A stretch of DNA of 64,000 nt from an uncultured bacterium (GTDB taxonomy: Bacteria > Omnitrophota > Gorgyraeia > Ghiorseimicrobiales > Ghiorseimicrobiaceae): contig CAJVXN010000006.1 of assembly GCA_913009335.1 (NCBI GenBank), positions 562 to 64,561 on the forward strand, in the 5' to 3' direction. The translations under genes were made by a program, and so were the position numbers. This document shows positions 3,160 to 5,951 of the stretch, piece by piece. The notes under the pieces were generated by a model, which was not told the DNA's origin, did no database searches, and worked only from the letters and a program-made list of their open reading frames with translations. Positions within the stretch are counted from its first letter, which is position 1; every line of letters starts with the position of its first letter.

Positions 3160-3342
3160 ATGAAAAAGAGATATAATCTTAGCGAAGCGGCAGAAATATT
3201 AGGCTTAACTCGTCAAGGGCTTTATTATTGGATAAAGAAGGGATGGGTAACTCCTAAACGTGATTATAAAGGCCACCCTGTGTTTATGGATGCTGATTTA
3301 AAAAAAATTAAAAAATGGAAAGATAAATTAGAAGAGGTTTGA
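3160..3342 (+). CDS. Excisionase/Xis-family (AlpA/MerR-like) HTH DNA-binding protein, putative recombination directionality factor
   Basis: 60 aa. LSEAAEILGLTRQGLYYWIKKG fits the excisionase-family HTH consensus. 4-nt ATGA overlap with the next gene. Co-located with a serine recombinase. Confidence 0.55.
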   Translation: MKKRYNLSEAAEILGLTRQGLYYWIKKGWVTPKRDYKGHPVFMDADLKKIKKWKDKLEEV

Positions 3343-5951
3343 TTATGAAATGTGCACGTGGTTCTGAATGGCGAAAATGGGATTTACATTTGCATACACC
3401 ATCTTCCTATGACTATGATGATAAGTCAGTAACCAATAAAACTATTATAGAAAAGCTAAAAGAAAAAAACATATCGGTTGTTGCCATAACTGATCATCAT
3501 GCAATAGATCATGTGAGAATAAAAGAATTACAAGAATTAGGTAGGAAGGAAGATATCACTATATTTCCTGGGATTGAACTCAGGACGCAATTAGTAGCAA
3601 AGGAAAATATTCACTTAATCGCTGTTTTTTCACAAGAAGCAAATTTAGAGCATTTATCAAATGAGATCTTGACAAAACTTGAAATTAATTCTCAAAGACA
3701 AGATGGGGAAGGTGAGGATGTAATATTCTGTGATTATAAAAAGGTGCTATCTGTCGTTCGTGAATTAAATGGTTTAATAATTATTCATTGTGGGGAGAAA
3801 ACGCAAGGGATGGATGATGTAATTAAGAATGACACAAAAGTTAAAGAAGCGATTAAGGAGAAAATGGTTGAGGAAATAAATATATTTGAAATCGGCAATC
3901 CAGAAAAAGATATTGCGGGATATAAGGGAAAAGTTTTCTCGGACTTAAGTAGAAACTATCCACTTATACTATGCTCAGATAACCACGATATTAAGAAATA
4001 TTATACGGACAATAAATTGCCTACGTGGATTAAAGCAGATCCCAATTTTGAAGGTTTAAAGCAGATCATTTATGAACCAGACGATAGGGTGAAGATTCAA
4101 GAATTCAAACCCGAAGAAAAGGAAACTTATCAATTAATTGATAAAGTAAAGTTTATTGATGATAGTTTTATGCCTGATGAACTGCTAATAAATCAAAATT
4201 TGACAACAGTTATTGGAGGTAAATCGACAGGTAAATCAATCTTATTAAGGAATATTGCTCAGGCTGTTGATCCTCGTGAGGTTACCGTAAGACTAGATGA
4301 AGGGGGTTTAAAGCCATATTCCAAAGAAGTAGATGGCTTTAAGGTTATTTGGAAAGACAAACAAGAAAGCGATAAAGAAACTGGAGATGTAAACAAAAAA
4401 ATAATCTACATACCTCAATCTTATTTAAATAGGTTAGTAGAAAAAGAGGGTAAAATAAGTGCGGTAGATAATATTATCGAAAACGTTTTAAAGCAGACGA
4501 TGGGACAGGTTTATGATGCGTTGTCATTTTTTGAAAGAACGAATAAACAAGATATAGCAAACAACATTGCGCTATTGTTTAATCTTAAAAAAGATTGGGA
4601 GGAGCAAAAAGAAAAAATAAAAAACATTGGAGATAAAAAAGGAATAGAGTTGGAACTCAAAATATTGGAAGAACAAATTGCAGAACTAAAGAAAACGTCA
4701 GGATTAAGCGACAATGAAATTGTAGAATACGATAATTATGTGCACCAAATAAAGACACTTACAAATCAAATTGAAATAAATAATTCAGATAAAATAGAGC
4801 TGGGGAAATTAAAGCAAAAGGATATTTTTCGAGAAATTTTATTTGGCGATTTATCAGACAGCTTACAAAGCGAAATGGAAACATTTTACAATGAACTGAA
4901 AGGTATAGCTGTTGACAAATGGAAGACTAAAATAGATGATAAAATTGAAGCTCAATCAGAAATCTTGAAGGCAAAGCAGGAAACGCTGCGTAAGGTTAAA
5001 ATTAAATTTTCTCCATTATTGGAAAAGGCAAAAAAAGTTGCAGCATTAAATGAAAAAATCAAACAGATTGAAATTCAACAGGGGAAATTAAGACATATAC
5101 AAGGTGAAGAAAAATCGCTAGAAGCTATACAGGCCAAATTTAAACAAACCATTATTAATCTTGAAAGTGCCAACTCTAAATTTTATGAAAAGTACCTTGA
5201 GGGAAAAAGAGAAATATTGGGGCAAGATATTATATCTGGTGATTTAACATTTCATTTAGAAGTCCAACATAAAACTCAATTTTTTCAAAATGATTTTATA
5301 AATGAAGTTTTTGACATGAGGCAATTGCCCAATGAACTTTCAGAATATGAATTTAAAGATAATGATAATTTTTCACATACTATAAAAGAAATAATCAATA
5401 AAATATTAAGTAAGAAATTAGCTCTAAAAGGGCGTTACACAGAGCAGGAGGCATTGACAAAGCTTTTGCAGAATTGGTATACGTTTGATTATCAAATTGA
5501 GCAGGGCGGCGATAGCATTTCTGATATGTCACCTGGGAAGAAATCCTTTGTTTTACTAAAGCTGTTAATCGAACTTGATAGCAGTAAATGCCCTATTTTA
5601 CTGGATCAACCGGAAGATGATTTGGATAACCGTTCAATATATGACGATTTAGTTAAATTTATTAAAAATAAAAAAAAAGAACGTCAAATCATCGTTGTTA
5701 CACATAATCCAAATTTAGTTGTTGGGGCAGATGCTGAATGCGTAATTGTGGCGAATCAAAAAGGAACATATTCCGAGAATAAAGAGTATCAGTTTGAGTA
5801 TATATCTGGCGCATTAGAAAACACTTTTATCACTATGGATGAAACTAAAACGTTGTACAAGCAGGGTGTTCAAGAGCATGTTTGCGAAGTTTTGGAAGGT
5901 GGCAGGGAAGCATTCGAAAAACGTAAGCAAAAATATGGGTTTAACTTATGA
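3339..5951 (+). CDS. PHP-domain phosphoesterase fused to Rad50/SbcC-like coiled-coil ABC ATPase (870 aa)
   Basis: N-terminal PHP motifs DLHLHT, ITDHH, GIEL, IIHCGE, CSDNHD. Walker A GGKSTGKS, a long Lys/Glu-rich coiled-coil region, signature-like MSPGKKSF, Walker [13 protein letters not shown]-loop VVTHNP. ATGA overlaps with both flanking genes. Confidence 0.6.

Follow-up and report, generated by a model that had tools for sequence, protein, structure and literature searches.

A TrlF-family PHP-ATPase, probably a defence nuclease, as exchangeable cargo of an inverted-repeat serine-recombinase cassette at miaB in Omnitrophota

We analysed a 64,000-nucleotide stretch of contig CAJVXN010000006.1 (called the window in the following), which comes from a Candidatus Omnitrophota metagenome-assembled genome with a G+C content of 37%. 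It carries a gene for a TrlF-family protein, which combines a PHP phosphoesterase domain and an SMC/Rad50-like ABC (ATP-binding cassette) ATPase in one chain. Our data suggest that this protein is probably a Ppl-like, nucleotide-gated defence nuclease, which is carried as swappable cargo by an inverted-repeat serine-recombinase cassette in the 5' end of miaB. The protein shows the architecture of its family and its catalytic motifs are intact. Its gene forms an operon with the genes of a small helix-turn-helix (HTH) protein and of a large serine recombinase, this operon is bounded by a 178-nt inverted repeat, the start of the adjacent miaB gene is chimeric and the cargo gene varies among related cassettes (Table 1).

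The TrlF gene is an uninterrupted open reading frame (3339-5951, plus strand). Its likeliest start codon is ATG 3345, 2 nt past the stop codon of the HTH gene, which gives a protein of 868 amino acids and agrees with the public gene call P0001 (100% identity). The alternative TTG start at 3339, which had been chosen in an initial annotation made from the DNA letters, would give 870 amino acids. P0001 occurs both in an NCBI contig of 64.9 kb and in an independent ENA contig of 4.9 kb; the latter corresponds to positions 2882-7768 of the window with zero mismatches. When the protein was scored with the NCBIfam model NF045780 (TrlF family AAA-like ATPase), 527.2 bits were obtained at a cut-off of 350, and residues 7-867 aligned with positions 1-944 of this 944-position model. 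Both this full-length score and the combination of an N-terminal PHP domain and a split ABC ATPase, whose catalytic motifs are conserved, place the protein in the TrlF family, with which it shares the order of PHP domain and Walker A, coiled coil, and signature, Walker B and H-loop. At the family level we found no difference. Among the candidates scored, 2,640 homologous proteins were detected at E<=1e-5, and at least 578 stretches were confirmed in one-genome-per-species GTDB contigs, which cover many bacterial phyla and some archaea. Homologues of the window protein carry the NCBI name TrlF and some sources label them 'ATPase involved in DNA repair'. The initial annotation had proposed a novel type of protein, and this proposal had to be given up since the protein matches a curated family over its full length and above the threshold, and more than 2,600 homologues of this family were detected.

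To define the domain structure, Pfam searches, structure prediction and fold comparison were combined. The PHP profile (PF02811) matched with 30.9 bits (gathering score 26.4) and AAA_21 with 28 bits (gathering score 27), SMC_N reached 38.5 bits, just below its threshold of 40, and the AAA_15 profile also matches the protein. An AlphaFold2 model was calculated from an alignment of 110 homologues, which was also used for motif conservation (predicted local distance difference test, pLDDT, 86.9; predicted TM-score, pTM, 0.72). It can be seen from this model that a PHP barrel (residues ~1-250) is followed by the N-terminal half (265-370) and the C-terminal half (634-868) of an ABC head, and that a helical antiparallel coiled-coil hairpin of ~250 residues (~373-625) parts Walker A from the signature. 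This is the layout of SMC/Rad50-type ABC ATPases, in which a long antiparallel coiled coil lies between Walker A and the signature, Walker B and H-loop. Foldseek searches of the PDB with the ATPase part retrieved the heads of SMC, JetC, MukB, Rad50, RecN and LmuB (E 1e-9 to 1e-6; 1e-9 to 1e-7 for the first five). The N-terminal domain gave PHP domains as matches, namely those of RNase AM (7ug9, with a target-normalised TM-score, TMt, of 0.65) and of Pol III alpha and PolC (2hpi and 3f2b among the fold matches). Sequence searches of the PDB, either with the single protein or with the 110-sequence profile, gave only the distant PHP enzyme 9etk.

All metal ligands of the (beta/alpha)7-barrel that are typical of the PHP superfamily (HxH, D, E, H and DxH) are present in the window protein (H15/H17, D50(H51), E78, H90, H148, D212/H214), and H15, H17, D50, E78, D212 and H214 are kept in at least 106 of the 110 aligned sequences. 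Similarly, Walker A, Q358, the SPGKKS signature, D754/E757 and H787 of the ATPase are invariant or nearly so. Because both centres are near-invariant in this alignment, they are subject to purifying selection. Two PHP sub-types can be distinguished in the family, and the window protein belongs to the minority (40/110) that has the extra histidines H51, H90 and H148. Taken together, the N-terminal PHP domain, the ATPase split by a coiled coil and the individual PHP and ABC motifs of the initial annotation were all recovered in the translation, the model and the alignment.

An analogy to SbcCD/Mre11-Rad50 had also been drawn. Here, the structural likeness held, since ABC head halves surround an antiparallel coiled coil, a metal-dependent nuclease of the kind that acts on DNA ends is attached, and 7zr1, 5da9 and 9q9i are among the fold matches of the TrlF model. 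In contrast, TrlF carries its nuclease in cis, and this nuclease is a PHP and not a calcineurin-like domain. Its coiled coil is short, with ~250 residues altogether, and lacks the CxxC zinc hook, and sequence identity is ~11%. In the translation, residues 373-625 contain zero cysteines, in the AlphaFold2 model the tip of the coiled coil (residues 491-505) lacks an insert of the size of an SMC hinge, and no Mre11/SbcD-like gene was found nearby among the open reading frames of the window and their Pfam matches. Other defence proteins that pair an ABC/SMC-type ATPase with a nuclease are GajA, OLD, AriA of PARIS, LmuB of Lamassu and JetC of Wadjet. TrlF shares the AAA_21/AAA_15 profiles with this group and gave Foldseek matches to JetC and LmuB, but these systems use Toprim or Cap4-type nucleases or separate subunits and none of them has a PHP domain.

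The closest functionally described relative is Ppl. According to PMC12904381 and to the work of Xu et al. (Mol Cell 2026) that PMC13434339 cites, Ppl of E. coli is a 3'-5' exonuclease of single-stranded DNA. The same accounts (PMC12904381; PMC13434339) describe that it is inhibited by nucleoside triphosphates (NTPs) bound to its PHP and NTPase domains and activated by the 3'-OH ends that phage homing endonucleases produce, and in the former it works as a single-gene defence. TrlF resembles Ppl, which occupies P2/P4-type prophage hotspots, in having a PHP exonuclease-type domain and an NTPase in one chain of ~880 amino acids, and TrlF was likewise found in a P2-like hotspot (see below). On the other hand, the middle third of the two proteins (the coiled coil) cannot be aligned, the window TrlF is part of an HTH-recombinase operon, and the triggers of Ppl, 3'-OH overhangs and NTP depletion, may not be those of TrlF. 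The NCBIfam model of Ppl (NF042955) gave 145.5 bits against a cut-off of 1000 (E 1.6e-42), with only residues 8-314 (PHP domain and Walker A) and a stretch of the C-terminal head aligned, and the PADLOC model PDLC02208 gave an E-value of 9.5e-34 with residues 8-310 as the best stretch of this 894-position model. Thus, the likeness to Ppl that the initial annotation had noted is real at the level of architecture and profile similarity, but it does not extend to an equivalog. When genuine Ppl sequences were searched by tblastn against phages and by a homology search seeded with the phage protein, only TrlF-family proteins were retrieved, and the comparison is therefore based on profile scores. 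Judged by these scores, the window protein is an intact TrlF member and a sister of Ppl, and neither a Ppl orthologue nor a new type of protein.

By analogy, the likeliest role of TrlF would be that of a Ppl-like, nucleotide-gated exonuclease of DNA ends that serves defence. In the mechanism we propose, two TrlF chains would pair via their ABC heads when ATP is bound, as SMC/Rad50-type heads do, and the ~250-residue coiled coil together with the heads would hold the DNA. DNA would be degraded from free 3' ends by the PHP domain, which belongs to the trinuclear-metal phosphoesterases and has proofreading counterparts in Pol III and PolX. Binding and hydrolysis of nucleotides would gate this nuclease so that it destroys foreign or broken DNA in the course of an infection. 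In the case of many homologues, the substrate could be DNA that has been cut by restriction enzymes encoded next door, and from their association we infer that TrlF cooperates with such enzymes in many genomes.

This association became apparent when 75 TrlF loci of different species, taken from GTDB species genomes, were surveyed. Restriction-modification (RM) genes were counted within four genes of TrlF and were present in 30 of the 75 loci (~40% of the TrlF genes in other phyla). They include type I hsdR/M/S, Eco57I-like type IIG, type III Res with N6_N4 methylases and C5 methylases, and they often lie on the same strand as TrlF with tiny gaps. Schlafen/AlbA_2 plus HATPase_c_4 genes were near TrlF in 13 of the 75 loci. 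The closest relatives outside of cassettes reside in an hsdM-hsdS-TrlF operon (locus L083) and in an operon of the order SNF2/nSTAND3-DUF4391-TrlF-methylase. In the P2-like Yersinia phage vB_YenM_42.18 (OM046624; L097, 2998-5616), a TrlF-family gene, which scores 465 bits on the TrlF model and is annotated as 'chromosome partition protein', lies between gpA and gpQ, a slot that we take to be the tin/old defence hotspot of P2-like phages. Because of these associations with RM operons, Schlafen genes and a phage hotspot, to which the adjacent Gabija genes of the window can be added, a defence function appears more plausible than housekeeping repair. Enterobacterial and marine relatives of the Yersinia phage protein form a second large TrlF clade.

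In the window, the segment bounded by the repeats comprises an operator, a promoter, the 60-aa HTH gene, TrlF and the gene of the 553-aa recombinase. The HTH and TrlF genes are 2 nt apart and TrlF overlaps with the recombinase gene by 4 nt (ATGA, 5948-5951), which confirms that the three genes are co-operonic as initially suggested. The operator is identical in the window, in L087 and in L103/L108, that is in three species, and its association with the HTH gene suggests that it is probably the site at which the HTH protein regulates its own expression. This protein, which also matches the PADLOC model mad1 (5e-9) and is encoded in every related module, is presumed to be an autoregulator and/or a recombination directionality factor. 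The recombinase has its catalytic serine in an RVST motif and its three Pfam domains all score above their gathering thresholds. With the SCCmec Ccr models (NF047343/7/4), it reached 248 bits for CcrB (cut-off 900), 181 bits for CcrC (900) and 96 bits for CcrA (700), and it is thus no Ccr equivalog.

Table 1. Coordinates of the features in the window and cargo of related cassettes (amino acid positions refer to the 868-aa protein)
Feature	Position	Strand	Evidence or remark
Gabija gajA	38-883	+	5' end cut by window start; PADLOC GajA 272 bits
Gabija gajB	868-2313	+	PADLOC GajB 457 bits
regA	2325-2410		86-nt conserved non-coding element directly after neighbouring cargo block
J	2620-2830	-	GC-rich (54%) element outside left repeat; 73-87% identity in six species
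Partial copy of core palindrome	2825-2844	-	left repeat edge
Left arm of 178-nt inverted repeat	2826-3003	-	repeat search, 94% complementary; alignment
Outward miaB leader copy in left arm	ATG 2890, 21 codons, TGA 2827-2825	-	leader translation
Operator palindrome GAAATATTTA-N3-TAAATATTTC	3083-3105	+	perfect; just upstream of -35 box
Sigma-70-like promoter TTGACA-17-TAAAGT	3121-3149	+	promoter scan, 10/12 matches
60-aa MerR/excisionase-type HTH	3160-3342	+	MerR_1 29.9 bits; HTH_17 24.6 bits, below cut-off
TrlF-family PHP + SMC/Rad50-like ABC ATPase	3345-5951	+	NF045780, AlphaFold2, Foldseek, motif conservation
PHP domain	3345-4094	+	part of TrlF gene
Walker A	4215-4238 (aa 291-298)	+	
Coiled coil	4461-5219 (aa ~373-625)	+	
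ABC signature	5526-5549 (aa 728-735)	+	
Walker B/D-loop	5595-5627	+	
H-loop VVTHNP	5694-5711	+	
Large serine recombinase, 553 aa	5948-7609	+	Resolvase 139.7, Recombinase 80.9, Zn_ribbon_recom 48.2 bits
Right arm of inverted repeat	7424-7601	+	true miaB start ATG 7537 and first 21 codons
miaB (target gene)	7537-9423	+	5' end cassette-derived; fused in frame to TPR/SPOR segment
Palindrome ACATCCG-TACCTT-CGGATGT	7583-7602	+	outer repeat edge, presumed recombinase core site
Cargo of window and L087			TrlF, 50% identical to each other
Cargo of L103/L108			Gabija (GajA 795 bits, GajB 350 bits)
Cargo of L114	8085-9992 (in L114)		DUF6119 protein, no PADLOC match
Cargo of L116	7290-10023 (in L116)		four small proteins, no PADLOC match
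Cargo of L101	1785-4390 (in L101)		534-aa membrane protein and 293-aa protein, no PADLOC match
Cargo of L105	1-1461 (in L105)		486-aa protein, no PADLOC match

The two repeat arms of the window differ at ten positions. Nine of these mismatches fall into the outer 62 nt, which represent miaB leader codons, and one into the inner 115 nt. The leader in the left arm is a near copy of the miaB leader and ends with a TGA immediately past the repeat. In the right arm, the 21 leader codons continue into those of CQMN..., and a MiaB motif extends across the repeat edge. Since the repeat replaces the start codon region of miaB, this gene stays intact. The core palindrome lies within the YIRTFGC codons of miaB, and its association with the cassette suggests that the recombinase probably acts at this repeat-edge palindrome; candidate crossover positions are the CC in the middle of ACATCCGTACCTTCGGATGT and the TG where the identity ends. 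The initial annotation had viewed the gene as mobile cargo on the basis of its recombinase operon and of the adjacent Gabija genes. The operon was confirmed, but the 178-nt inverted repeats, the chimeric 5' end of miaB and an apparent inversion had been overlooked, and because of these properties the unit is more than a simple integrated island.

Some peculiarities of coding structure were observed at the right end. The last ~60 codons of the recombinase gene traverse the right repeat and overlap with the miaB leader in another frame, with an ATGA overlap at 7606-7609. Recombinase homologues are 541-583 amino acids long, depending on the outer flank, and the annotation of one of them includes a MiaB N-terminal domain. 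The window miaB is a single 628-aa open reading frame that continues into a transmembrane/TPR/SPOR segment. In the relatives, two separate genes are present (for example 392 + 255 amino acids in L099, 365 + 242 amino acids in L116), and the 628-aa frame is either a real fusion or the result of a lost stop codon.

More than 120 cluster representatives of the recombinase share 64-90% identity, and almost all of them originate from Omnitrophota. The recombinase gene is directly upstream of miaB in every locus examined, and in the relatives UPF0004 and Radical_SAM domains come next. In L087, L101/L106, L103/L108, L114 and L116 the same order was found: the conserved non-coding element regA, the GC-rich element J, left repeat, operator/HTH, cargo, recombinase, right repeat and miaB. 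When the loci are compared, identity amounts to 70-87% for the recombinase and to 80-95% (nucleotides) for the repeat, but to only 45-52% for MiaB beyond codon 21. Since recombinase and repeat are far more similar than MiaB, the backbone has passed from one lineage to another and miaB has a chimeric 5' end. The cassettes of L103/L108, L114 and L116 combine a ~80-86% identical recombinase, the same repeats and the HTH gene with cargo other than TrlF. Because these sister cassettes hold other cargo, TrlF is exchangeable and dispensable for the backbone. This finding supports the initial idea of defence cargo on a mobile element, since cassettes with an 86% identical recombinase hold Gabija or other genes in the same slot. 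By their position, the cargo genes of L114, L116, L101 and L105 are candidates for unrecognised defence genes. Homologous HTH or recombinase partners of TrlF were not found by BLAST among 80 distant genomes, so that the HTH-TrlF-recombinase module is specific for this lineage and not for TrlF in general. Look-ups of the L087-lineage recombinase and of the window HTH gave no new arrangements.

Repeat copies were also seen at other places. In L104 (13754-14131), L105 (2927-3304) and L102 (6112-6289) they are joined to miaB-like pseudo-sites (TG|GCAGATGGC...), which lie 2.7-4.2 kb upstream of miaB genes with their own native start; the recombinase of L102 is truncated. These copies look like decayed or alternative insertions.

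Comparison of the contigs suggested that the module can be inverted. Within each relative the repeat arms are identical (178/178; 176/176 in L116), and they differ between relatives, which suggests ongoing exchange. In all loci the identity of the arms ends right after TTCGGNTG, and four kinds of outer flanks follow in these short-read assemblies: miaB, J (ACCCTTGG...) and two others. L087 reads J-repeat-HTH..., and L090 reads reverse-complemented miaB-repeat-HTH.... In a second species, L103 reads J-repeat-HTH-GajA... and L108 reads J-repeat-(recombinase...HTH reversed)-repeat. L091 and L092 are contigs that cover exactly the unique segment from one repeat to the other. Opposite orientations in different samples were likewise seen for a neighbouring cargo block of ~10 kb in two species (L084 vs L085, with the junction at 7109, and L103 vs L108). 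On these short-read contigs, inversion of the module is likely, and the recombinase would flip it at the palindrome of the outer edge. Flipping would not switch miaB off because both flanks keep the same sequence.

The neighbouring block contains type I RM and GmrSD genes in one species and a type III-like RM system in the other, it is headed by an HTH_17 gene, and contigs tend to stop at its far side. Neither a second inverted copy of J nor a third copy of the repeat, either of which might explain the flipped block, was found in the window or in 24 loci. In L086 (12446-12570, one sample) the right repeat runs after the shared CGGATGTCA into unrelated sequence (ATTATTGGATGATAGG...) and not into miaB. 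This flank had no match among the other loci compared and could be the junction of an excised circle or a second insertion site.

Considered as a whole, the cassette consists of an operator/promoter-HTH unit, the cargo and a large serine recombinase between 178-nt inverted repeats. Tentatively, and as a possibility that we rate below the defence role of TrlF, we propose that this HTH-cargo-recombinase platform is a previously undescribed element that has spread horizontally in Omnitrophota. It would insert at the FGCQMN codons of miaB and repair the gene with its own leader, its recombinase would flip it at the palindromic core between perfect 178-nt inverted repeats, and it would swap TrlF, Gabija, DUF6119 or other cargo between conserved ends, accompanied by J as a conserved structured RNA and by the repeated boundary element regA beside a second invertible block.

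As to the role of TrlF, three other explanations deserve consideration. The protein might belong to a multi-gene system linked to RM, in which case the orphan of the window would be inactive or would depend on enzymes encoded elsewhere, for instance on Gabija. The 30 of 75 loci with type I, IIG or III RM or C5-methyltransferase genes and the location of the closest non-cassette relatives in hsdMS or SNF2/methyltransferase operons speak for this possibility, but more than half of the loci lack such a neighbour, the copies in the P2-like phage and in the cassettes of the window and L087 are single cargo genes, and the catalytic motifs of the window protein are all intact. Moreover, the sister protein Ppl is a single-gene system (PMC12904381), and we regard this explanation as quite unlikely. 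Still more doubtful is a housekeeping function in DNA repair, with TrlF as a one-chain analogue of SbcCD/Mre11-Rad50 or RecN that acts on hairpins or breaks of host DNA. It would agree with the SMC, Rad50, RecN and MukB heads as best fold matches, with the proofreading or repair exonuclease function that PHP domains have in Pol III, PolC and PolX (2hpi, 3f2b) and with the repair label of some homologues. A housekeeping gene would hardly be distributed so patchily across phyla and in variable regions, nor would it be expected in RM operons, in a phage hotspot and in a recombinase cassette whose sister copies hold Gabija or unrelated genes, and the protein lacks both zinc hook and hinge. We give the least credence to the idea that TrlF serves the mobile element (DNA ends, recombination, replication or maintenance) rather than host defence. 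Its gene is translationally coupled to that of the recombinase and shares promoter and operator with the HTH gene, and serine-recombinase-like genes are located within 10 kb of 8 of 80 distant TrlF loci. Nevertheless, the backbone exists with other cargo in the sister cassettes described above and the majority of TrlF genes have no recombinase nearby.

A different kind of explanation concerns the cassette. The two orientations and the flipped neighbouring block might be assembly artefacts, and the cassette might be an ordinary integrated island that is fixed in place and has a decayed duplication. The de Bruijn graph is identical for either orientation if an inverted repeat exceeds k, a number of contigs break off exactly at the repeat borders (L091, L092) or near the far end of the neighbouring block, and the outer flank of L090 measures only 46 nt. 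However, there are long contigs that run through the complete repeat, have kilobases to its left and right and show opposite arrangements in two species (L103/L108, L084/L085). In addition, the arms are identical within a genome and different between genomes, including the variable base in CGGNTG, and several distinct outer flanks join at the same nucleotide. In view of these data we consider an artefact the less likely alternative and retain inversion of the module as the preferred interpretation. There are, nevertheless, a number of points that weigh against the picture of a Ppl-like nuclease on an invertible cassette. The evidence for both orientations comes from short-read metagenome contigs, in which orientation can be mis-resolved because a 178-nt inverted repeat exceeds the usual k-mers, and a collapse of repeats could account for part of the identity of the arms. 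Both the site of crossover and the role of the recombinase are deduced from sequence only. Literature searches with the name TrlF returned only spectroscopy papers and unrelated matches and no experimental study of a TrlF protein, and no structure of Ppl or TrlF was among the PDB sequence or Foldseek matches. Because the protein failed the equivalog threshold of Ppl and its coiled-coil middle cannot be aligned with Ppl, regulation and substrate of TrlF may differ from those of Ppl. Finally, with ~40% of the homologues in RM operons, some TrlF proteins may need partners that are absent here.

The cassette can be compared with known elements. SCC-type cassettes (Ccr/SCCmec at rlmH), skin and SP-beta also have a large serine recombinase that edges a cargo element in a conserved gene, and the best named match of our recombinase is CcrB. 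Defence cargo on large-serine-recombinase elements has been documented (references discussed in PMC13552941). In contrast to these elements, the sites are long, perfect and inverted instead of direct, the 5' end of the target is rebuilt, the module apparently inverts and the host belongs to the Omnitrophota. Hin/Gin/Pin segments are likewise flanked by inverted repeats, have the recombinase gene inside or next to them and occur in both orientations, and PinQ/PinR have been linked to phage defence (PMC12529663). However, their enzymes are small serine invertases, which use sites of ~26 bp together with a Fis enhancer and switch alternative gene ends or promoters, whereas the window encodes a 553-aa large serine recombinase and inversion leaves the flank sequences alike.

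The protein side of our data lowers expectations, since combinations of PHP and SMC-like ATPases have already been named and TrlF is a very large family with the characterised sister Ppl. The comparative data lead to a family-wide hypothesis, namely that TrlF proteins are exonucleases directed at DNA ends which often act alongside restriction enzymes. The newer result is the genomic context, which illustrates the way in which defence genes are packaged and exchanged in an uncultured phylum that has been little studied, and the cargo slot makes the DUF6119 gene and the small genes of L116, L101 and L105 good candidates for new defence genes. If the inversion is real and driven by the recombinase, the cassette would represent a natural inversion switch that combines a large serine recombinase, defined sites and a small HTH partner, and this would be relevant to mobile-element biology and genome engineering. 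It would also be a natural case of a large serine recombinase acting as invertase on a defence module.

Outside of the repeats, the window contains a Gabija system, J and regA. The Gabija genes (38-2313), which the initial annotation had correctly placed next to the cassette, encode proteins with OLD-like TOPRIM and UvrD domains (Pfam) and belong to the neighbouring variable defence block, not to the repeat-bounded module.

J is a candidate for a structured RNA that is read outward from the left repeat. Its stems are kept, and apical parts of its hairpins vary in length between species. In the model-fitted alignment, 91% of the cells pair, against 86% in shuffles and 37-53% with slid partners, and the G-U pattern favours the minus strand, which means transcription outward from the left repeat. 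Rfam searches of positions 1-12000 gave nothing at the gathering threshold; at E<=1 over 2300-3160, only a weak match to Gut-1 (E 0.14) was obtained, and this was located at regA. ARAGORN found no tRNA or tmRNA near J. With neither an Rfam nor an ARAGORN match, a group II intron, RNase P, 6S RNA and tmRNA were dropped as identities of J, and a displaced miaB fragment was rejected as the translations lack similarity to MiaB.

regA is 78-82% identical (nucleotides) to its counterparts in L087, L101, L103, L111, L114 and L116 and follows the neighbouring block in all relatives. In L116 it occurs twice (2746-2830, 6299-6365) and parts two cargo groups. In the relatives, the breakpoint of the inversion of the neighbouring block is located ~6 nt beyond regA, and this element may be a cassette boundary or a recombination site.

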